Shown here: positions 14,826-63,730 of the stretch, piece by piece
How positions within the stretch are numbered: the stretch's first letter is position 1
How the letters are laid out: the number at the start of each line of letters is the position of its first letter
DNA from: Escherichia phage vB_EcoM_G2540-3
DNA: 64,000 nucleotides
Sequence record: MK327944.1
Direction: 5' to 3' (one strand)
Made by a program: the position numbers and the translations under genes
The notes under the pieces: generated by a model
The model's input: only the letters and a program-made list of their open reading frames with translations
Database searches by the model: none
Told to the model about the DNA's origin: nothing

Positions 14826-14855
14826 ATTATACCATACTCATTTTGGAAAGTAAAC
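14826..14855 (-). promoter_or_regulatory. T4-type early promoter
   Basis: Minus strand GTTTAC, 18 nt, TGGTATAAT. Confidence 0.65.
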
Positions 14856-14860
14856 CGTTT

Positions 14861-14890
14861 AAATGAAAAAAGGACTCCCGAAGGAGTCCT
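14861..14890 (-). terminator. intrinsic terminator after soc
   Basis: Minus RNA GGACUCC-UUCG-GGAGUCC followed by UUUUUUCAUUU. Confidence 0.8.
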
Positions 14891-14897
14891 TGAATTA

Positions 14898-15134
14898 TTA
14901 ACCACCTATTGATGTAGGCGTAAACATTGCAGCATTCTTAGTTTTCCAAGTTGCTGCATCGGAAACTACATCAGAATATGCTGCCTTTTCAGAAGGAAAG
15001 GTCTGATAATGAGAATCTGCAATACGATGCTCGTTAGAATAGATTTCAAATGGAACAGAAACTTCCATACCTTTAACTTCTTTGCCTTCACCCGCTGGAT
15101 GAGTAAAGGTCTTGATGTTAACGAAACCACCCAT
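14898..15134 (-). CDS. soc: small outer capsid protein Soc, 78 aa
   Basis: VNIKTF...HYQTFPSEKAAYS matches the Soc signature; late promoter upstream and strong terminator downstream. Confidence 0.85.
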   Translation of the reverse strand: MGGFVNIKTFTHPAGEGKEVKGMEVSVPFEIYSNEHRIADSHYQTFPSEKAAYSDVVSDAATWKTKNAAMFTPTSIGG

Positions 15135-16514: not shown

Positions 16515-17165
16515 TTATTTTTCCTTTCTTATGAAGTTTTCTATCATATGTCTATAGCAGATATTAGGATAACCTGCCTTGACAGCTATTTTATTAAATT
16601 TTGTGCGCTTAGGTCTATTATTATAAACCCATAATTCATAAAGCGCATCATAACTATTCCATATTTCTCCTCGCCTAGGATTTGGTAAACCATATCGAGG
16701 CGAATTTTTACCGCTAAATCTTCCTTTTCGGGCTTTACTCATATTAGCCTTGGCTTCATCGGATATAATTTTACCTTTATGAGCTAGACGCATTTTGGCT
16801 TTAGTTTCTTCTGGAGTCTTTTTACCTTTAATCCATGACGGCTTGCCATATCTAGGATTATTTTCACCCGAGAAAAGAACAGAGTTTTGGATTTTAAGGG
16901 TTTCTATTAATCTACTTGTTAATTTAACACCTTTATTATATCGCATTAAATTTACAGCATAATGCAATCCTCTCACATCTGGATATATTTTAGTTAATAA
17001 TCTATGAGCTATAAAATGCTCACGCGCAGTTAACTCAACAAGATTGTTTTTGCCATCTGCTCCTCCCATACATCTAGGAATTATATGATGGCGTTCTTTA
17101 TATCCGCCAAGATGCCGGCATTTAGCTTTTGTAATTAAAGCCGAGTAAATTTTTTGGTAATTCAC
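16515..17165 (-). CDS. HNH (Mob-type) homing endonuclease, 216 aa
   Basis: HHIIPRCMGG...NLVELTAREHFIAH motif; MotA-box middle promoter upstream. Confidence 0.8.
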   Translation of the reverse strand: MNYQKIYSALITKAKCRHLGGYKERHHIIPRCMGGADGKNNLVELTAREHFIAHRLLTKIYPDVRGLHYAVNLMRYNKGVKLTSRLIETLKIQNSVLFSGENNPRYGKPSWIKGKKTPEETKAKMRLAHKGKIISDEAKANMSKARKGRFSGKNSPRYGLPNPRRGEIWNSYDALYELWVYNNRPKRTKFNKIAVKAGYPNICYRHMIENFIRKEK

Positions 17166-19577: not shown

Positions 19578-19607
19578 ATAGTATCTCAATTTCTAACAAA
19601 AGTAAAC
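19578..19607 (-). promoter_or_regulatory. T4-type early promoter (before the sp-like gene)
   Basis: Minus strand GTTTAC, 18 nt, TACTAT. Confidence 0.6.
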
Positions 19608-19861
19608 TATTTTATTTCCTCAAGTTCGTTAATCAATAAAAGTTCTCTGACGCTAAAAACAAAGAAAAATGTGTTCCCATCAACCAGAGCATGACCGCTA
19701 ATAGAACACCCTCTGCGGAATTTAGAAACTTCACAATCTAGAACTGTAAAGGGTTTTAATCCTATGACTTTAGCTGTGCGTCTATTCAGTTCACAACCAC
19801 TTGCGAATTTTTCCAAATCTTCTTCTGATTTAAACTGATATTCTCTATTAACTAGCATCAT
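19607..19861 (-). CDS. hypothetical protein, 84 aa
   Basis: ORF with RBS GGAG and early promoter at 19893..19922. Confidence 0.5.
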   Translation of the reverse strand: MMLVNREYQFKSEEDLEKFASGCELNRRTAKVIGLKPFTVLDCEVSKFRRGCSISGHALVDGNTFFFVFSVRELLLINELEEIK

Positions 19862-19892
19862 TTTCTTTTCTCCGCGATTAGCTGATAGAATT

Positions 19893-19922
19893 ACTATAAC
19901 ACAACTCTATCAGCTTGTAAAC
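19893..19922 (-). promoter_or_regulatory. T4-type early promoter with -10 inside a 9-bp inverted repeat
   Basis: Minus strand GTTTAC, 18 nt, TATAGT; arms GCTGATAGA and TCTATCAGC. Confidence 0.6.
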
Positions 19923-19924
19923 TA

Positions 19925-20167
19925 CTATTTTACTAGCATCAATAACTGTTTCTCTAACTTGACGATTTTACGAAAGTATCTTTTGCATTGGCGAATCTGT
20001 CGCTTCGTAGGGCGCACAGCAAACTTAATAAATTCCACTCGACCAAATGGAGGACTTTCTTCTGCTGGAATATCTAACACCAATTCCCACGTATCCGCAA
20101 TAAGTGCCTTGAATTGAGTATTTTTCCTGACATTATACGGAGTAGGTTTAAATAAAACAATATGCAT
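19925..20167 (-). CDS. hypothetical protein, about 80 aa
   Basis: Start set at ATG 20167 just after the upstream stop. Confidence 0.45.
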   Translation of the reverse strand: MHIVLFKPTPYNVRKNTQFKALIADTWELVLDIPAEESPPFGRVEFIKFAVRPTKRQIRQCKRYFRKIVKLEKQLLMLVK

Positions 20168-26060: not shown

Positions 26061-26441
26061 TCACTTAGTCAAATTTTTTACACATGAATTATAAGAATTT
26101 ACTACATACTCCATCGGAGCATTTTTACCAGTACGCCATTGATAATTATTAGCCCAATTTGCCCAAAGCACGGCGCAGTAATTTTCAATTTTTTCTTCGC
26201 GTGTAATTACATCTGAATTACGATATGCTTGTGCAGATTCATCTGGACGAATAGCTTCGTCAAAATTCGCCTGCATTTGTTCTACTGTCTGTTTTGGAGC
26301 TTCTTTATAACACTTAACATTAGGATTATAAAATTTGCTTGAACAGTTTACAATTTTTCCTACATCAGATTGATTTACTACCGGTCCTTGAGCTACACAA
26401 CCAGTAAGACCCAATGCAATAACCAAAATAGCGATTTTCAT
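26061..26441 (-). CDS. lipoprotein, 126 aa
   Basis: MKIAILVIALGLTGC lipobox; start trimmed to ATG 26441, since the ORF-track N-terminal extension is translated promoter/leader DNA. Confidence 0.55.
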   Translation of the reverse strand: MKIAILVIALGLTGCVAQGPVVNQSDVGKIVNCSSKFYNPNVKCYKEAPKQTVEQMQANFDEAIRPDESAQAYRNSDVITREEKIENYCAVLWANWANNYQWRTGKNAPMEYVVNSYNSCVKNLTK

Positions 26442-26475
26442 TTCATTCTCCAAATCCGCATCAGTTGATAGTTGT

Positions 26476-26505
26476 ATAGTACCATGGAAGAACAAGGATG
26501 TAAAC
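26476..26505 (-). promoter_or_regulatory. T4-type early promoter with conserved leader module
   Basis: Minus strand GTTTAC, 18 nt, TACTAT, followed by ACAACTATCAACTGATGCGGATTTGGAGAATGAA-ATG. Confidence 0.6.
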
Positions 26506-26585
26506 AGTTTTGTGAAAAAATTTTTAATGAATTCAAAGGATCCAGAATCATCTGTTTTTCATAAGTATAGATTTATATTACTTGT

Positions 26586-26610
26586 ATGAAAAAGGGACCC
26601 GGAGGTCCCT
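26586..26610 (-). terminator. intrinsic terminator after gene 43
   Basis: Minus RNA AGGGACC-UCCG-GGUCCCU followed by UUUUUCA. Confidence 0.7.
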
Positions 26611-44152: not shown

Positions 44153-45966
44153 TGGTGTTTAACCCTATGCATGATTTCTTTGTTTTTACCGAGATTAAAT
44201 CCGCGTTCGTTCGGATTTCCCAAATAACCACATGTTCTTCTTATTGTGTTCATCTTTTTAGGATCAGTTTCTCCACAAATAGAACAAACAAATCCGTTTT
44301 CAGTAGGAGTCATTTCATGGGTACTTCCACATGTAAAACATTTATCTACTGGCATATTAACACCAAAATAATCTAAATGTTGTGCAGCATAATCCCATAC
44401 AGCCTCAAGACCCTTTAAGTTATTTTTCATATCAGGAAGTTCAACATAAGAAATGTGACCACCTGTCGCAATGAAATGATATGGCGCTTCACGAGAAATC
44501 TTTTCAAACGGAGTAATATTTTCTTCTACTGAAACATGGAAACTATTAGTGTACCAGCCTTTATCGGTAACATCTTTTACACTTCCATATTTTTCTGTAT
44601 CAAGTTTACAGAAGCGATAACAAAGGTTTTCAGCAGGAGTCGAATATAAACTAAAAGCAAATCCGGTTCTTTCAGTCCACTGTTTAAGATGAGCATTCAT
44701 TTTAGTTAAAATTTCTTGTCCAATATCACGACCGACAAGAATATTCAATTCGTGAATACCAATGTATCCTAAAGACACTGAACTTCTACCGTTTTTAAAT
44801 AACTCAATTATGTCGTCATCAGGTTTAAGACGAACCCCGAATGCACCTTCTTGGTAAAGAATAGGAGCAACAGTCGCTTTAACTCCTTTTAAGGAACTAA
44901 TTCTACACATCAAAGCTTCAAAACATAAATCCATTCGTTCATTAAATAGCTCAACAAATTTCTGTTCATTGAATTGTGTTCCAATATAAGAATCTAACGC
45001 GATGCGAGGAAGATTCAGTGTTACAACACCAAGATTATTACGTCCATCAAGAATTTCATTACCAGTCGAATCTTTCCATACGCTCAAGAAACTACGGCAA
45101 CCCATCGGAGAAACAGGAACTGAAGAACCGGTAATAGCTTTATTGTTCTTAGCTGAAATAATGTCAGGATACATTCTTTTGCTTGCGCACTCTAGAGCAA
45201 GCTGTTTAATATCATAGTTCGGATCGTCTTTATAAAGATTAACACCTTCTTCAACGAACATAACAAGCTTAGGGAAAATAGGAGTTATCCCGTCACGACC
45301 AAGACCTTTAATACGATTTTTCAGAATTGCTTTCTGAATCATTCGTTCAGTCCAGTCAGTTCCCGTACCAAATGTAATTGTTACAAAAGGCGTTTGTCCG
45401 TTTGAACTAAAGAGAGTATTTACTTCATATTCATAAGCTTGGAATGCATCGTATACGTCTTTTTCTGTTTTAGACTGGGCGTAATTCAACGCATCAGCGA
45501 TTTGCCATTTTTCTGCATCTTCAATATGTTTTGCATAGGTGCGTTTAACATAAGGAGAAAGTACTTTGTCTACATTCGCAAAAGTCGTTCCACCATATTG
45601 ATGGGAAGCAACCTGTGCAGTAATTTGTGCCATAATTGCAGTAGCAACACCGATTGATTTAGGAGTTTCAATCTGTGCATTACCAAGCTTAAATCCGTTC
45701 TCAAGCATTCCTTTTAAATCTACTAAACAGCAATTAGTAAATGGAAGAGCAGGGGAATAATCAATATCATGGAAATGGATAATTCCGCTTTCATGCGCTT
45801 TCATAATAAAAGACGGGACCATATTTTTGGCAATGTGTTTAGACACAATACCAGCCATAAGGTCCCGTTGAGTTGGAAAAACACGAGAATCTTTATTAGC
45901 ATTCTCGTTCAAAAGGTCTTTATTAGTTTTATGAATCAATCCTTCAATTTCTTTTTCAATTGTCAT
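44149..45966 (-). CDS. nrdD: anaerobic ribonucleoside-triphosphate reductase NrdD, 605 aa, uninterrupted
   Basis: 605-aa continuous ORF; C-terminal zinc ribbon CFTCGS...CSICG and glycyl-radical region. Confidence 0.9.
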   Translation of the reverse strand: MTIEKEIEGLIHKTNKDLLNENANKDSRVFPTQRDLMAGIVSKHIAKNMVPSFIMKAHESGIIHFHDIDYSPALPFTNCCLVDLKGMLENGFKLGNAQIETPKSIGVATAIMAQITAQVASHQYGGTTFANVDKVLSPYVKRTYAKHIEDAEKWQIADALNYAQSKTEKDVYDAFQAYEYEVNTLFSSNGQTPFVTITFGTGTDWTERMIQKAILKNRIKGLGRDGITPIFPKLVMFVEEGVNLYKDDPNYDIKQLALECASKRMYPDIISAKNNKAITGSSVPVSPMGCRSFLSVWKDSTGNEILDGRNNLGVVTLNLPRIALDSYIGTQFNEQKFVELFNERMDLCFEALMCRISSLKGVKATVAPILYQEGAFGVRLKPDDDIIELFKNGRSSVSLGYIGIHELNILVGRDIGQEILTKMNAHLKQWTERTGFAFSLYSTPAENLCYRFCKLDTEKYGSVKDVTDKGWYTNSFHVSVEENITPFEKISREAPYHFIATGGHISYVELPDMKNNLKGLEAVWDYAAQHLDYFGVNMPVDKCFTCGSTHEMTPTENGFVCSICGETDPKKMNTIRRTCGYLGNPNERGFNLGKNKEIMHRVKHQ

Positions 45967-48611: not shown

Positions 48612-49540
48612 TTCAATATCTCAATAGCATTACGTAAACCATTTGCTTTTGCATTAAGAGCTTTTAACAATTTGGTGTGTTCTGCAATTTGGGCTTCAAC
48701 TTCAATCAAACGAGCATTGAGATATTCGCGTTCTTCACTCAGATTATCAACCTTTTCTACTTTAGGCTCTTTTACAACTGTCTTATATGTATTAGGGTTC
48801 TTCAGTTTAATTAGAATGCGTGAACTGTATAACATTGAACCATTATCTTCGGTTTCGTCATACATTTCCACTACGTCCATAATTTTTAACATCATGCGGA
48901 GTTTATAAGACAACGAACGAATAGTTTTGTTGTGCTTATTAATTTCTTTAGCTGTCATGGTGCCAAGATTACGTGAGTAATAATAAGGAACCTGGATATT
49001 AATTAATACTGATGAACCACCTGGCTTGTGTGTTACTTCATCAGCAATAACCCAGTCCTTAACATGAACTGTATTTGTACGGTCATCGCCCGCGGTAAAT
49101 AGTTTGCGAGCATGCTTAAAAAGCATATTCACTTGGTCATTGAATTGACAAGCAAATTTATCAGCAAATTTAGTTTCAGGAATGGTAGAAAACCAATCAG
49201 CCAAATGAGTCTTTTTAACATCATTAACAATAGTAAATTCAACCAAATCGGTTATAGATGTCTCAGATTTAATGAAGCTCGGCTTCATAAAGTTTTTAAT
49301 GTTCTCATGAGCTACAGTAGAAGATAACATACGAGAACGTTTAAACCATTCAAGCAAATTGCCTAACGAATGAGAATAAGCGTTTTGAGTATCTTTACAG
49401 ATATGATTTTCCTGACCAACATATTGAAGGAAATCACGAAGAATATTATTATTGATTACTGCCCTGTGTCCTATCTGATAATTACGATGTTTAGTAATAA
49501 GACTGTCAAAATAATCAATATAATGTTTACGAGTTTTCAT
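48608..49540 (-). CDS. hypothetical protein with C-terminal coiled coil, 310 aa
   Basis: Long ORF; C-terminal heptad-like region EEREYLNARLIEVEAQIAEHTKLLKAL. Confidence 0.55.
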   Translation of the reverse strand: MKTRKHYIDYFDSLITKHRNYQIGHRAVINNNILRDFLQYVGQENHICKDTQNAYSHSLGNLLEWFKRSRMLSSTVAHENIKNFMKPSFIKSETSITDLVEFTIVNDVKKTHLADWFSTIPETKFADKFACQFNDQVNMLFKHARKLFTAGDDRTNTVHVKDWVIADEVTHKPGGSSVLINIQVPYYYSRNLGTMTAKEINKHNKTIRSLSYKLRMMLKIMDVVEMYDETEDNGSMLYSSRILIKLKNPNTYKTVVKEPKVEKVDNLSEEREYLNARLIEVEAQIAEHTKLLKALNAKANGLRNAIEILK

Positions 49541-49548
49541 GGTGTTCC

Positions 49549-50460
49549 TTAAGATTTAAGTAAATCAACAATTTTAATTAACTTTTCACGCTCAGATTTA
49601 GCTTTACTACTCAGTCCAGATAGTCTGAAAATTTCATCATCATATTGTTGAATAGAAATATTCAGCTCTTCAATCTGTTTATTAAAATAATCAATTTGTT
49701 CAGAATGTTTTTCGTTACTACGAACTGATACAGGTTTTGTAGGCAATTTAGTTGAACTAGATTCATCCGGGCGATAAATTAAAATACAACTTGAACCAAT
49801 TGGACATTTTGCACCAGATGAATATTCTAATGTTCCGGCTTCTTTTAAAACTTCAAAAGCTAAACAGAGATGATGCCCCATATTAACATAATCAGTAGAG
49901 CGAGCTCTGATGTAATAATCATCTCCGCGAATACTAAATTTAAAGCATTTAAGGTCTTCTGTATTATTGGTCTTAAAAATCATTTGTTTATTTAGACCTT
50001 TAGCTAATCGAGCGCCTAATGCTAATAATCGTCGTTGATTTTCCCACAAATCTGCGATCATTTGGTCAAATGATAATTTCGGCATTAGTCGACCATAAAG
50101 GTCATATCCTTTATTATAATTACGAAGGATTTCACTCGCATTAATACGAGACAATGCTCCAATTTTATTAAGGGCTTTCATAATGCGATTAGATAAACTC
50201 ATTCCAGATCCGTTTGTTCGCTGCAAATGTTTTTCTAATCCAAATCCAATATCAACTTTAAACTTATCTAAAATTTCTGCATGAACATCTCTGTCAATAA
50301 CATTCAAATCCAAAGTTGAGTTAAATCTATGAAAAAATTTATCTGGCTCTGCACTGCGAAATACAGTCCATTCATTCATCATTTTTTTATTAACTAAAGA
50401 TTTAATTACTGCATTGACATTATTAATTACTACTGACATATTTTCCTCACTCAATTTCAA
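49549..50460 (-). CDS. hypothetical protein with C-terminal coiled coil, 303 aa
   Basis: Long ORF; C-terminal coiled-coil-like region. Confidence 0.55.
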   Translation of the reverse strand: MKLSEENMSVVINNVNAVIKSLVNKKMMNEWTVFRSAEPDKFFHRFNSTLDLNVIDRDVHAEILDKFKVDIGFGLEKHLQRTNGSGMSLSNRIMKALNKIGALSRINASEILRNYNKGYDLYGRLMPKLSFDQMIADLWENQRRLLALGARLAKGLNKQMIFKTNNTEDLKCFKFSIRGDDYYIRARSTDYVNMGHHLCLAFEVLKEAGTLEYSSGAKCPIGSSCILIYRPDESSSTKLPTKPVSVRSNEKHSEQIDYFNKQIEELNISIQQYDDEIFRLSGLSSKAKSEREKLIKIVDLLKS

Positions 50461-50854
50461 TTTTACTAAATATACAGAATAAGATGGAACAGACTATATA
50501 AGCACCACACACAGATTGAACTAATACCATTCCAAAGAACCAAATAATATTATCAAACAGTGTCTGTTTTACGTCGAAAGGACGTAAACTTACAGTAATA
50601 TTATCACCTTTTTCTATTGAAGAATACATCTCTGGGGAAATATATTCACTAAATCTATAACCGTCTTTGAGTTCATATACGGCAATAAACGATAAACTAG
50701 ACCCCTTTCCTTGAGTTCCTGCAAGGGTATTAACTACAGTAACATCATAATCTTTATAATGCATATAATCATTAATAGCATAATAACCATATGCAATTAC
50801 TATACATAAACAACATATCAATAAATTCAATCTTTTAATTATCAACTGTTTCAT
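50447..50854 (-). CDS. membrane protein, 135 aa
   Basis: N-terminal and C-terminal hydrophobic helices. Confidence 0.5.
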   Translation of the reverse strand: MKQLIIKRLNLLICCLCIVIAYGYYAINDYMHYKDYDVTVVNTLAGTQGKGSSLSFIAVYELKDGYRFSEYISPEMYSSIEKGDNITVSLRPFDVKQTLFDNIIWFFGMVLVQSVCGAYIVCSILFCIFSKIEIE

Positions 50855-50909
50855 AATAATCTCAATTAAAAGGGCTTAGAACCATTATACCATCCTTGGT
50901 ATAAAGCAG

Positions 50910-51437
50910 TTATGCGAGTACCGTCTTTAACCGTTCTTCAAACTTCCGAAGAGTATTCTGGCGTTCAGCTCTTTGCTTTTTGTAAGTTTCAATACGTTCT
51001 GAAATGAGAGTGTATCGTTCATTTACTGATTCTTTCATAAAATCAGGAATTTCACGAGAAGCTTTAATCTCGTCAAATTTATCAATAACAGCTTGCTCTT
51101 CAGCAATTAAGTTATCATACATCAAAATATCTTTCTTGATGAACTCAATATCTTCTTGAGTTACACGAGATAATTTAGATGCTTTATCCTTTTTGTACTG
51201 TTCGTTAGTATCACGAGACCAGTGTAATGTACGATTTTTATTCGTATTCTTGTAAATTTCTACAATACCAATCTCATCAATAATAACGATCCAATTCCAA
51301 CGAGATTTGTAAATTTGCCCTCCGTCAACCGTGATTTCACCTCCGATTGAGATGTCATTAAAGAACTTGCTTTGTGCTTCAGATTTAAATTTACCATCGT
51401 TGTAATTTACCGGGTTGAAAATATCTTTAGCGTTCAT
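50910..51437 (-). CDS. hypothetical protein, 175 aa
   Basis: RBS GGAGG; early promoter at 51465..51494. Confidence 0.55.
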   Translation of the reverse strand: MNAKDIFNPVNYNDGKFKSEAQSKFFNDISIGGEITVDGGQIYKSRWNWIVIIDEIGIVEIYKNTNKNRTLHWSRDTNEQYKKDKASKLSRVTQEDIEFIKKDILMYDNLIAEEQAVIDKFDEIKASREIPDFMKESVNERYTLISERIETYKKQRAERQNTLRKFEERLKTVLA

Positions 51438-51464
51438 TTGTGTTCCTCCGTAGTTGATAGTTGT

Positions 51465-51494
51465 ATAGTACCACAGAGGAACAGTCTTGTAAAC
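51465..51494 (-). promoter_or_regulatory. T4-type early promoter
   Basis: Minus strand GTTTAC, 18 nt, TACTAT, followed by ACAACTATCAACT. Confidence 0.6.
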
Positions 51495-51496
51495 AA

Positions 51497-51811
51497 CTAA
51501 AAGAAACTTCTTTCACAATTTTTTCCACTGAACCAAGCGCTCACTGCTTTCTTAGTCTCAGGAGCAGTGTTATCCATAAACCATTCAAAGGCAGCCTTTT
51601 TATGATTCTGGAGGGCTTCTCGGGCTTTAATCTGCTCACGGTCTATTAACACTAACATATGAGCCTTTCTTGTCACCAAGGGCTTCTTATGATTCTTGGA
51701 GTATTCCCAGTCATTTGTCCAACGCATTGTCGTTGCGAACTGATGAATCGCGTCTTTAATTTTAGTTTCATAAATTTCACGAGCCTTTGAGTATAACATC
51801 ACTACCTCCAT
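51497..51811 (-). CDS. hypothetical protein, 104 aa
   Basis: ORF only. Confidence 0.45.
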   Translation of the reverse strand: MEVVMLYSKAREIYETKIKDAIHQFATTMRWTNDWEYSKNHKKPLVTRKAHMLVLIDREQIKAREALQNHKKAAFEWFMDNTAPETKKAVSAWFSGKNCERSFF

Positions 51812-51900
51812 TTACCAGTTTAATTCTAATCATCTTTTTGATGGCAGTCCATATAATCTATTTCTGAACTGCCTTTTTGTCATAGAAGTCCTCTTATGAA

Positions 51901-52869
51901 TTATTTCAGAAGAGTAACCTCAGCAATTTCTTCCCAACCGTTTTTGTCGGTCATAATAAAGTCAGCAAGATAAAGAGCAGTACGCAGTGAAACATTGCGT
52001 AAACGATTAACATTAACTTTCATCCATGATAATGCTTTATAAGTTTCTTCATCAGAAAGACCGCGCTTTTGCATCATGTCAGTTGAAAGAATAACATCTT
52101 CAACCCTGACCATAATTTCTTCATTAGTGTGAACACCCAAATCCAAATAAACCGAGCGGGACACTAATGCTTGTAAATGTGGAGCAAGTTTAGTACCACG
52201 GTCTAATTCGCGGTCAATGTCAACGTTTGTGATAAAAACAATCGTTCCTTTAAATTCAAACTCACGCTCAATGCCTTTTTCTTCTAAGTAAGAAGACGCA
52301 GTGCTCCAGCAGACTTTACGGGTCTCTCCGGTGTCCAGAGCAGCTTTCAGAAGATTAAGAATGTCCATATCAGAGAAAACATCCACATCATCAATCAAAA
52401 GGACAGAATTCTCTTCACGATTATTCCAAAGCTGTTCATAAAGACCAATACCAGAGATTTTACCATTAATGCTTTTATATTCAATGTATCCAATATCATT
52501 TGCTTTATTTAAAGCTTTATCTAAAGAATACGTTTTACCAATGCCTGCCGCACCAGAGATAATTAATGAACGAATGTTTCCGTTAATAATACCATTCGTC
52601 ATCATTCCCATAACATTAAATCTTTTATTAATGCGGGTTTTCATATCTTCATACGATTCTTTAACTTCTTCAACTTTTACACCATCATATGAAATGTCTG
52701 ATTTGTAAACCCAAACACCGCGACGTTTACCGTCAATTTCAACAAAAACTTTACCATCTCCTTGTGCATCTACTGGAGCATTATCTGGGAACCATTCGCC
52801 TAAGAGCTCAAAAGTTCCAGAGATTTCTTTACCGAAGTAGATACCCTTATTGATAGTTACAGTTTTCAT
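51901..52869 (-). CDS. P-loop (AAA-like) ATPase, 322 aa
   Basis: Walker A GAAGIGKT and Walker B LLIDDVD; start trimmed to ATG 52869 after RBS GGAG. Confidence 0.6.
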   Translation of the reverse strand: MKTVTINKGIYFGKEISGTFELLGEWFPDNAPVDAQGDGKVFVEIDGKRRGVWVYKSDISYDGVKVEEVKESYEDMKTRINKRFNVMGMMTNGIINGNIRSLIISGAAGIGKTYSLDKALNKANDIGYIEYKSINGKISGIGLYEQLWNNREENSVLLIDDVDVFSDMDILNLLKAALDTGETRKVCWSTASSYLEEKGIEREFEFKGTIVFITNVDIDRELDRGTKLAPHLQALVSRSVYLDLGVHTNEEIMVRVEDVILSTDMMQKRGLSDEETYKALSWMKVNVNRLRNVSLRTALYLADFIMTDKNGWEEIAEVTLLK

Positions 52870-52903
52870 TTTATTCTCCAAATCCGTATCAGTTGATAGT
52901 TGT

Positions 52904-52933
52904 ATAGTACCATAAAGCTTTATGCTTGTAAAC
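52904..52933 (-). promoter_or_regulatory. T4-type early promoter with conserved leader module
   Basis: Minus strand GTTTAC, 18 nt, TACTAT, followed by ACAACTATCAACTGATACGGATTTGGAGAATAAA-ATG. Confidence 0.6.
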
Positions 52934-52956
52934 AATTTTGTGAAAAAATTTTTGAA

Positions 52957-52984
52957 ATAAAAAAAAGGGAGCCCGAAGGCTCCC
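52957..52984 (-). terminator. intrinsic terminator after 52987..53997
   Basis: Minus RNA GGGAGCC-UUCG-GGCUCCC followed by UUUUUUUUAUUU. Confidence 0.8.
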
Positions 52985-52986
52985 TA

Positions 52987-56319: not shown

Positions 56320-56347
56320 GATGTTCTCCTCTTTATCCGATAGTTGT

Positions 56348-56377
56348 ATAGTACCACAGCTCAAACGGAAAGTAAAC
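56348..56377 (-). promoter_or_regulatory. T4-type early promoter
   Basis: Minus strand GTTTAC, 18 nt, TACTAT, followed by ACAACTATC. Confidence 0.6.
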
Positions 56378-56381
56378 CGGC

Positions 56382-56410
56382 AAAATGAAAAAAGTCTCCC
56401 GAAGGAGACT
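56382..56410 (-). terminator. intrinsic terminator after 56415..56801
   Basis: Minus RNA AGUCUCC-UUCG-GGAGACU followed by UUUUUUCAUUUU. Confidence 0.8.
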
Positions 56411-60064: not shown

Positions 60065-60526
60065 TCATTGAGTTTTAATTACTGCTTTAGAAGCCTTTCC
60101 TGGTAAACGACGACTGTTGATAATTGCCATCCTGCATTGAAGTGACGGGTTTTTGAACTTCTCGTTAGGTTTACAAACTGTAAATCCAAGCCAAAGATTT
60201 CCATCTGTGATTTCTAAACGTCCAGGACGATATTCAACCCCATCAATAAAATCCTCGTCAATGTCAGGACGCGGAGGCATACTCAGGAATTCATTAACTT
60301 CTAAAACATGGTCTTTTATTTTATGGAATAATTCAAAAACATATGTCTCATCAATCTCCCGTTGAATTGCACGATCAAGAAGATGTTGAGAATATTTTAG
60401 ATGAAACGATGAGACTCCTGCTGCTTTTGATGCCTCACGAATCTCATTGTTAATTTGACGAAACTCCGACTCAAAATGACGACGAAGCTTATTTCTACGG
60501 ATAAAAACTTCTGTATTGATAGTCAT
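60065..60526 (-). CDS. regB: RegB site-specific endoribonuclease, 153 aa
   Basis: 153 aa; position between the tk/vs genes and denV; RBS GAGGAG; early promoter upstream. Confidence 0.65.
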   Translation of the reverse strand: MTINTEVFIRRNKLRRHFESEFRQINNEIREASKAAGVSSFHLKYSQHLLDRAIQREIDETYVFELFHKIKDHVLEVNEFLSMPPRPDIDEDFIDGVEYRPGRLEITDGNLWLGFTVCKPNEKFKNPSLQCRMAIINSRRLPGKASKAVIKTQ

Positions 60527-62723: not shown

Positions 62724-63140
62724 TTAAATGTAAATATTTTTGCCGTAATACTTATACCAGTGTGGCTTCATTAAAATTTTTTCATCGAGTCGTTGTTGAC
62801 TCAACTTAATAGCTGATTTGCATGGATTATAATCATTTTTCCATTCTACTGGAATATCGCTGATGTCAGGAACTTCAGTATCTTTTATACTGAACCCGCG
62901 TTTTAAGCATTCCGTTATAATGTCCGATTGACGCTTTCGCAAAAATTCTAACTTATCGTAAAAGAAAGTAACATGACCAGAACCTAAAATAAATTTAGAA
63001 GATATTTTAAAATCTTTAACGCGCTTACCGTTTGCCACATGCTTACGAACTATACCAAAAACACGCGGCAATTCACGGTATTCTGCGATTAAATGTTGAT
63101 CAGCAAGTTCAGATACTAAAGTCAAATTAATACGAGTCAT
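62724..63140 (-). CDS. denV: endonuclease V (DenV) pyrimidine-dimer DNA glycosylase, 138 aa
   Basis: 138 aa; N-terminal [27 protein letters not shown] matches the DenV family. Confidence 0.9.
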
Positions 63141-63165
63141 TTTATCCCTCCAAGTAACTGTGAAT

Positions 63166-63195
63166 ATACTATCACAATTCTAGGAGAAAGTAAAC
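63166..63195 (-). promoter_or_regulatory. T4-type early promoter (denV)
   Basis: Minus strand GTTTAC, 18 nt, TAGTAT. Confidence 0.55.
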
Positions 63196-63199
63196 AACT

Positions 63200-63730
<531 letters not shown>

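Follow-up and report, generated by a model that had tools for sequence, protein, structure and literature searches.

A repeated early promoter and leader cassette ahead of imm.1 and nrdC.10 in a T4-like phage

Layout of the repeated block and its downstream genes

The window analysed here, a continuous stretch of 64 kb of phage DNA, belongs to a T4-like Tequatrovirus. A 3-kb query taken around the first of the sites described below matched 669 phage records, with T4 identical to the window at 97.4-97.5% and phages FL23 and FL44 the closest at 98.6%. In the T4 reference (AF158101), the orthologue of the first gene of interest, imm.1, lies between gene 43 and imm; copy 1 of the block adjoins this gene, copy 2 adjoins nrdC.10, and two shorter copies are followed by nrdC.8 and mobD.5 (Table 1). 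The hairpin of copy 1 is directly 3' of the gene 43 stop and 88 nt upstream of the -35 element.

Table 1. Coordinates of the two full copies, the shorter members and the genes that follow them in the window
Feature	Coordinates	Strand	Details
imm.1 CDS, cargo of copy 1	26061..26441	(-)	126 aa; DUF5481; LTGC lipobox; ATG 26441-26439
Shine-Dalgarno sequence GGAGAATGAAA	26441..26451	(-)	10/11 to GGAGRAYARAA; the imm.1 ATG begins with its last A
imm.1 initial transcribed region and 5' leader	26442..26475	(-)	holds non-consensus core CTGATGCGGATTT; GGAG 26451-26448
Predicted imm.1 transcription start	26469		A, 7 nt after the -10
Extended -10, TGgTACTAT	26476..26484	(-)	TG before second hexamer
Block copy 1, TGGTACTATACAACTATCAACTGATGCGGATTTGGAGAATGAAATG	26439..26484	(-)	
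Copy 1 promoter spacer TCCTTGTTCTTCCA	26485..26498	(-)	4/14 vs copy 2 spacer
Copy 1 UP-like A/T tract and -35, AAAAATTTTTTCACAAAACTGTTTACA	26499..26525	(-)	TTTACA 26504-26499; 26/27 vs copy 2
Copy 1 intrinsic terminator hairpin AGGGACC-TCCG-GGTCCCT	26593..26610	(-)	7 pairs, 5 GC; followed by T run
nrdC.8 shorter member	51438..51493	(-)	-35 51493-51488; TGGTACTATACAACTATCAACT 51473-51452; own leader ACGGAGGAACACAA; ATG at 51437
nrdC.10 CDS, cargo of copy 2	51901..52869	(-)	322 aa; ATG 52869-52867
Block copy 2, 46 nt	52867..52912	(-)	TGgTACTAT, leader, GGAGAATAAAA (52879-52869; 11/11 RegB/S1), ATG
Predicted nrdC.10 transcription start	52897		
Copy 2 promoter spacer AGCATAAAGCTTTA	52913..52926	(-)	in T4, 14/14 common to frd.3 promoter
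Copy 2 UP-like tract and -35, AAAAATTTTTTCACAAAATTGTTTACA	52927..52953	(-)	-35 hexamer 52932-52927
Copy 2 intrinsic terminator hairpin AGGGAGCC-TTCG-GGCTCCCT	52966..52985	(-)	after nrdC.11 stop; followed by T8
mobD.5 shorter member	56320..56410	(-)	hairpin 56410-56393, followed by T run; -35 56376-56371; TGGTACTATACAACTATC 56356-56339; own leader GGATAAAGAGGAGAACATC; ATG 56319
19-mer GTGGTACTATACAACTATC	26467-26485, 52895-52913, 51456-51474, 56339-56357		four sites

Both copies have the general form TGGTACTATACAACTATCAACTGAT(G/A)CGGATTTGGAGAAT(G/A)AAATG on the minus strand, copy 2 being the copy 1 sequence with A at both purine positions. Counted from TGGTACTAT through the ATG, 44 of 46 nt are identical (95.7%), or 48 of 50 when the common ATGAAAA is included, and the number of 37-mer matches expected by chance is 0.00. 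The original prediction had described a near-identical minus-strand block before both genes at 26441-26481 and 52869-52909. Its claim of near-identity is borne out, with limits that fall within 2-3 nt of those we found, and the identity lies well above the level of about 80% below which the repeat was to be regarded as ordinary promoter consensus. The promoter-proximal half had also been located at two further sites, 51465-51480 and 56348-56360; it is indeed present at both, about 9 nt away from those positions. The 19-mer GTGGTACTATACAACTATC that the four sites have in common occurs four times in the window against 0.02 expected. A second homologous block lies further upstream of both full copies, AAAAATTTTTTCACAAAA(C/T)TGTTTACA, matching at 26 of 27 positions (26525-26499 versus 52953-52927), and the 14-nt promoter spacer that separates the two homologous blocks is unrelated between copies. 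All copies are direct repeats.

The genes that follow the two full copies have nothing in common. Imm.1 and NrdC.10 are unrelated proteins, the latter with a Walker-A motif (GAAGIGKT) and weak AAA/STAND matches below the Pfam cut-offs, and the earlier description of one cassette placed before unrelated genes thus holds.

Early-promoter elements, start codons and leader RNA

The arrangement of elements agrees with the proposal that the block is a promoter joined to a leader: an extended -10, TTTACA at a distance of 17 bp, a UP-like tract, GGAG and an upstream terminator hairpin are all present. Both copies carry GTTTACA (26505-26499 and 52933-52927), corresponding to the T4 early-promoter -35 form GTTTAC(A/T), together with the 17-bp spacer, the TGn extended -10 and a TACTAT hexamer that are expected of such promoters. 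An A/T-rich UP-like tract, AAAAATTTTTTCACAAAA, is directly upstream of the -35 in both, as in T4 early promoters, and a consensus A/T tract is also found in a set of 30 T4 promoters. GGAG stands 6 nt upstream of the ATG in both copies. A consensus for T4 early promoters was reportedly established by Liebig and Rüger in 1989 (J Mol Biol 208:517). These promoters have been described as a UP/-35/TGn/-10 arrangement with additional consensus regions (Hinton 2010, PMC2988021), with GTTTAC at -36 to -31 (PMC1524935). The sites studied here share with them the UP tract, GTTTAC(A), the 17-bp spacer, TGn with TAYWAT and the extra start-site consensus; they also precede early genes on the strand that is transcribed early, and are orthologues of the regions upstream of T4 imm.1 and nrdC.10. 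We infer that both copies would be active as sigma-70 promoters. A middle, MotA-dependent promoter is ruled out, since the -35 region holds GTTTACA in place of the TGCTT of a MotA box.

In the open-reading-frame track, imm.1 and nrdC.10 appeared with similar N-terminal extensions, which we reproduced in frame as LFFHGTIQLSTDADLENE-MKIAIL and LFTSIKLYGTIQLSTDTDLENK-MKTVT, with the common form GTIQLSTD(A/T)DLEN(E/K)-MK. If GTIQLSTD.DLEN. were a genuine N-terminal extension shared by the two proteins, it would account for both frames being open with TTG codons upstream, and for the frame being kept by the ACT indel that distinguishes the T4 imm.1 copy. Nonetheless, we give this reading practically no credence and have rejected it. 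The TTG codons lie within the spacer and -35 region, right after the terminator and before the predicted transcription start; the annotated ATG has GGAG 6 nt upstream; the T4 annotation opens both genes at that ATG; the lipoprotein signal peptide of Imm.1 starts from it; and in relatives other open reading frames follow the same leader, with imm.1 then standing behind a different sequence. As the original prediction had supposed, the extensions are artefacts of translating promoter and leader, and the starts of imm.1 and nrdC.10 are fixed at the ATG 6 nt after GGAG.

The two copies do not differ in kind from T4 early promoters; rather, the imm.1/nrdC.10 pair, with the ndd.6 copy in T4, makes up a sub-family whose identity runs on for about 25 nt past the general early-promoter consensus, across the leader as far as the start codon. 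The minus strand of the window has 13 GTTTAC-N18-TAnnnT sites, and we compared all 78 pairs among them. Over the 40 nt after the -10 the imm.1/nrdC.10 pair agrees at 38 of 40 positions, whereas the remaining pairs average 14.3 (sd 4.7) and the next best reaches 24; its identity is thus beyond ordinary promoter consensus. The consensus of 22 T4 early promoters that do not belong to the sub-family gives the generic parts: the extended -10, a weak ctATCaa near the start site and an A-rich Shine-Dalgarno zone, with no conservation from about +12 to the Shine-Dalgarno sequence.

Known functional consensus, namely the -10, the CTATCAA start region and a RegB-type Shine-Dalgarno sequence, explains about two thirds of the 46-nt block, and it could be asked whether the copies were independently optimised to one functional consensus by pure convergence, with no shared ancestry. 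TGgTACTAT, CTATCAA and GGAGRAYARAA together make up some 27-30 of the 46 nt, and the spacers are unrelated, matching at only 4 of 14 positions. However, the 13-nt core CTGAT(A/G)CGGATTT (CTGATRCGGATTT) is specific to the sub-family, with nothing like it in the other early promoters' consensus, yet agrees at 12 of 13 positions between the copies; the pair stands about 5 sd above all other promoter pairs; and the promoters of motA, e.8 and nrdC.8 share progressively shorter 5' parts of the block, a pattern of descent with recombination. We therefore consider convergence highly unlikely, and common descent the better account of the block and above all of its core.

The leaders, about 28 nt long, also resemble targets of early mRNA cleavage. 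The strong RegB/S1 site has the consensus GG*AGRAYARAA, and its GGA must be unpaired, being protected from RegB cleavage by secondary structure (Uzan and Miller 2010, PMC3014915). The fit to this consensus is 11 of 11 for GGAGAATAAAA (nrdC.10) and 10 of 11 for GGAGAATGAAA (imm.1), and 31-nt leaders are predicted to be unstructured, with MFE values of 0 to -0.3 kcal/mol and z about -0.5 to +1. Like established RegB/S1 sites, these are intergenic GGAG motifs that form early-gene Shine-Dalgarno sequences in an A-rich 3' context and are predicted to be unpaired, and an intact regB open reading frame of 153 aa is in the window (60065-60526). The imm.1 and nrdC.10 leaders are best described as candidate RegB/S1 cleavage sites.

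Members of the family and rearrangement around them

T4 has the same two cassettes, its imm.1 copy carrying an extra ACT inside an ACTACT repeat. A whole-genome scan of T4 located a third full copy at the ndd.6 locus, which runs on into ATGAAAATCGCT, the first 12 nt of imm.1, as well as partial members at motA, e.8, frd.3, nrdC.8 and mobD.5. The motA and e.8 promoters have the block in common up to ...CAACTACTGATACAGA, and those of nrdC.8, mobD.5 and frd.3 up to ...ACAAC(T/C)ATC(AACT). Among phage records the 46-nt block occurs at 1472 places in 533 records, or about 2.8 per genome, and these records are of T4-like coliphages and of Shigella, Yersinia and Salmonella phages. Klebsiella-phage records match the gene 43-imm region and are absent among the names listed for the block. 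An exact-pattern scan of IMG/VR gave 5 loci with the full leader and 27 with an 18-mer, the latter used for comparative tables; the comparative set, drawn from the window, from T4 and from seven IMG/VR contigs, has 42 members of the family.

The leader GAT(A/G)CGGATTTGGAGAAT(A/G)AAATG precedes at least four unrelated open reading frames at three loci: Imm.1, a 78-85-aa open reading frame (MKIVMGCLAV), NrdC.10 and, at the ndd.6 locus, an 87-aa open reading frame (MKFKFYYAKH), T4 having just an 8-codon remnant there. The 78-85-aa open reading frame lies between cassette and imm.1 in 326 records, where imm.1 has its own GAGG Shine-Dalgarno sequence; T4 and the phage of the window are thus among the genomes in which cassette and imm.1 are fused directly.

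In all leaders of the imm.1/nrdC.10 type, at three loci and across nine phage genomes or contigs, GGATTTGGAGA is invariant. This invariance, and the position of the 13-nt core outside any known consensus, would be expected if the leader were a dedicated cis-regulatory RNA that, by its structure or by binding a protein or small RNA, co-regulates imm.1, nrdC.10 and the ndd.6-locus gene post-transcriptionally, beyond the action of RegB. Against this, no stable structure is predicted (MFE 0 to -0.3 kcal/mol, with z reaching about +1), and a search of the whole window against Rfam at gathering thresholds gave no match, on which grounds we rejected a structured RNA element in the leader. The block also appears from record names to be limited to close T4 relatives, the Klebsiella phages being absent among the matches listed, and within the comparative set the leader accommodates an indel of 3 nt as well as point changes to its core. 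A dedicated regulatory RNA accordingly seems a most improbable account of the leader. A related proposal, that the core CUGAU(A/G)CGGAUUU and the invariant GGAUUUGGAGA form a post-transcriptional operator for some phage or host factor, is improbable too; if it were true, Imm.1, NrdC.10, the ndd.6-locus open reading frame and the small open reading frame that has taken over the cassette in most relatives would constitute a co-regulated early regulon, instead of just having inherited sequence in common.

The original prediction had further suggested that the copies create dispersed homology that could drive recombination, with deletions or inversions between copies in related phages as its mark. 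An association of such dispersed homology with rearrangement is supported, by insertions and losses at cassette edges in relatives, by mosaic promoter modules and by a promoter fusion within the window. In one contig (L026), three open reading frames are inserted between the nrdC.10 promoter and nrdC.10, with a left junction immediately after ACAACTATCAA and a right junction at CCTATCAA...GGAGAATAAAATG, given as CCTATCAAatcaaaGGAGAATAAAATG; another contig (L032) has the same leader and first open reading frame. From -35 to -10, the 30-mer of the window imm.1 promoter agrees with the T4 e.8 promoter at all 30 positions. The T4 imm.1 core departs from that of the window in a block of 4 bases and agrees with the ndd.4/5 promoter of T4 at 29 of 30. 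At frd.3, four phages have four different promoter spacers, of which that of T4 is the nrdC.10 spacer (14/14). Compared with T4, the window lacks ipII and ipIII, and its denV is directly joined to an ipIII-type promoter.

We looked through 50,697 phage records for two of the junctions that recombination between neighbouring copies would leave. The one joining the nrdC.10 promoter to the leader of nrdC.8 was in none of the 613 records that span it, and the one joining the mobD.5 promoter to the leader of nrdC.10 was in no natural genome (1/510), the single record, MZ375356.1, having been rejected as an engineered T4 clone (T4_583L). Genes 43, 44, 45, 62, 46, 47 and 55 lie between the two full copies, and a deletion between these copies would therefore remove essential replication genes. 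Moreover, with every copy in direct orientation, exchange among copies can only delete, duplicate or circularise DNA, and inversions are impossible. The ends of the window-T4 alignment fall near cassettes in 4 of 36 cases (three junctions), a modest excess with a rough P of about 0.03, and for most indels the cause is probably a different one, homing endonuclease genes for example. That T4 recombines at short homologies is known (Srikant et al. 2022, PMC9391042). From the junctions and mosaic promoters above, we infer that the cassette may be a unit of shuffling, for which recombination would be the mechanism.

The high identity of the two copies might also mean that one locus was recently copied from, or converted by, the other in this genome, the more so as the window imm.1 leader is without the ACT of T4 and so resembles the nrdC.10 leader. 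This we judge very unlikely. Both copies are orthologous in T4 and hundreds of relatives, and an unrelated spacer separates the homologous blocks. Furthermore, T4 and the window agree in the AAT(G/A)AAATG difference that separates the copies, which speaks against the two being homogenised often; the other (G/A) position is A in both T4 copies. The ACT difference falls in the slippage-prone tandem ACTACT and could have arisen by slippage of this repeat instead of by exchange.

Relation to known cassettes and likely origin

The features assembled here closely resemble the promoter-early stem-loops (PeSLs), which T4-type phages carry as mobile regulatory cassettes (Arbiol et al. 2010, PMC2839356). 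In the description that Comeau et al. (2014, PMC4122927) give for the PST/T4 pair, a PeSL consists of a stem-loop, an AT-rich region, TTTACW-N17-TAYWAT, a Shine-Dalgarno motif and an initiation codon. The stem-loop terminator, AT-rich region, -35 and -10 elements, Shine-Dalgarno sequence and start codon are all found here: the stem-loop is linked to the promoter, the Shine-Dalgarno sequence and start codon are at the 3' end, and the setting is beside indels and replacements. As with PeSLs, the cassettes precede genes of non-essential or unknown function, with insertions, deletions and replacements between close relatives. In contrast, the stem-loop of copy 1 is 88 nt upstream of the -35 and not immediately adjacent to it. 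A second parallel comes from T-even phages, whose internal-protein (IP) locus, flanked by promoters and terminators, is polymorphic (Repoila et al. 1994, cited in PMC2839356 and PMC4122927). There too, genes that T-even phages exchange or lose have conserved early-promoter motifs on either side, and the denV fusion of the window is polymorphism of this sort, which the PeSL papers ascribe to such motifs. The IP locus is a different one, and its promoters belong to another sub-family, GTTTACTTTCTC...TGTGATAGTAT.

The repeat is real, and it represents an already known feature, the early promoter and ribosome-binding-site consensus of T4 together with the PeSL cassettes. Very likely, the imm.1 and nrdC.10 copies are PeSL-type starts of early transcription units whose near-identity reflects common descent, shuffling and selection. 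On this interpretation, the intrinsic terminator would insulate the cassette from the upstream unit, and a very strong sigma-70 early promoter (UP tract, GTTTACA, 17-bp spacer and TGgTACTAT) would be recognised by host RNA polymerase right after infection, so that a short unstructured leader of about 28 nt would be transcribed. GGAG in its A-rich context may then provide for efficient translation while also offering a RegB/S1 cut site through which early mRNAs would be shut off. Duplication and recombinational shuffling would have placed one promoter-leader module before different cargo genes, with common descent applying above all to the 13-nt core, and the module may have been kept by selection on the promoter, the start region and the Shine-Dalgarno/RegB sequence, with occasional patchy exchange between paralogous copies.

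The main value of the finding is for annotation, in that it explains the spurious extensions in the open-reading-frame track and marks four boundaries of early transcription units in the window. That such cassettes are preferred sites for the gain, loss and swapping of genes is already established, and the present case raises no new question in this regard. Rather, it offers a further illustration of an established practice, by which T4-type phages plug accessory genes into their early programme via cassettes of terminator, promoter and leader.

A third full cassette and the search for exchange products

At its ndd.6 locus T4 has the cassette complete for a third time (Table), and here identity runs on past the leader into ATGAAAATCGCT, corresponding to imm.1 codons 1-4. 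The reading frame at this T4 locus then ends at a stop after 8 codons, and other phages carry an 87-aa ORF there. The T4 copy looks like what is left of an old exchange with the cassette of imm.1. Among phage records, a predicted inter-cassette junction, the deletion product expected from recombination between neighbouring copies, is spanned solely by MZ375356.1 (L034). This record, 'Mutant Escherichia phage T4 clone T4_583L' (151,790 bp), is a reduced genome made by engineering and no natural variant.

Coordinates of cassette-related and variable features
Feature	Location	Strand	
Third full cassette copy, ndd.6 locus	T4 AF158101 ~166990-167090 (L011 ~17000-17090)		
ipIII-type promoter-denV junction	window ~63144-63151	minus	
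ipIII-type promoter, short leader and denV start	window 63130-63200	minus	
Second cassette sub-family	window 14826-14900 and 56348-56410	minus	
ORF between cassette and imm.1	L006 2065-2298	minus	
ORFs between nrdC.10 promoter and nrdC.10	L026 1601-2385		
Segment upstream of sp promoter	window 19607-19944		
Segment at nrdC.3-nrdC.5	window 48749-49529		

Insertions and variation at early promoters

Relatives of the window phage show additional coding sequence at the two cassettes. Between cassette and imm.1, L005, L006, L007 and L020 carry a small ORF (78-85 aa) whose N-terminus is hydrophobic; it was found in 326 phage records and is missing from T4 and the window. At nrdC.10, contig L026 (IMGVR_UViG_3300045988_128797) has three ORFs (49, 87 and 66 aa) inserted between the promoter and the gene, with an early-type promoter inside the insert. 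The leader and first ORF of this insert recur in another locus, L032, behind a promoter whose terminator hairpin abuts the -10 element because the -35 region has been deleted.

We also observed a second cassette sub-family in the window. Its two members resemble each other in the half that carries the terminator and the -35 element (CTCCTTCGGGAG(A/T)C(C)TTTTTTCATTT..CGGTTTACTTTCC), with 23/32 identity in the UP/-35 segment, and their -10 elements and leaders are unlike. Separately, about 300 nt without a T4 counterpart directly precede the -35 element in the early promoter of sp (spackle), and one end of a window-versus-T4 alignment falls exactly at this element.

Gene content relative to T4

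At denV, a short leader joins an ipIII-type early promoter (GTTTACTTTCTCCTAGAATTGTGATAGTAT) straight to the start of the gene, and the window has nothing that corresponds to T4 65359-66454, the segment with ipII and ipIII. At window 45428-45431 the nrdD group I intron with I-TevII (T4 44814-45850) is absent, and apparently precisely so; an Rfam search of the window returned no intron and no other RNA family, consistent with the missing nrdD intron. In place of T4 49074-51984, which contains the 3' part of nrdC.3, nrdC.4 and nrdC.5, the window has 780 nt that megablast matched to nothing. A published study (PMC9391042) describes T4 nrdC.5 as counteracting Dsr1 defence. Because the nrdC.5 region is replaced at the nucleotide level, this counter-defence gene may be absent or divergent in the window phage.
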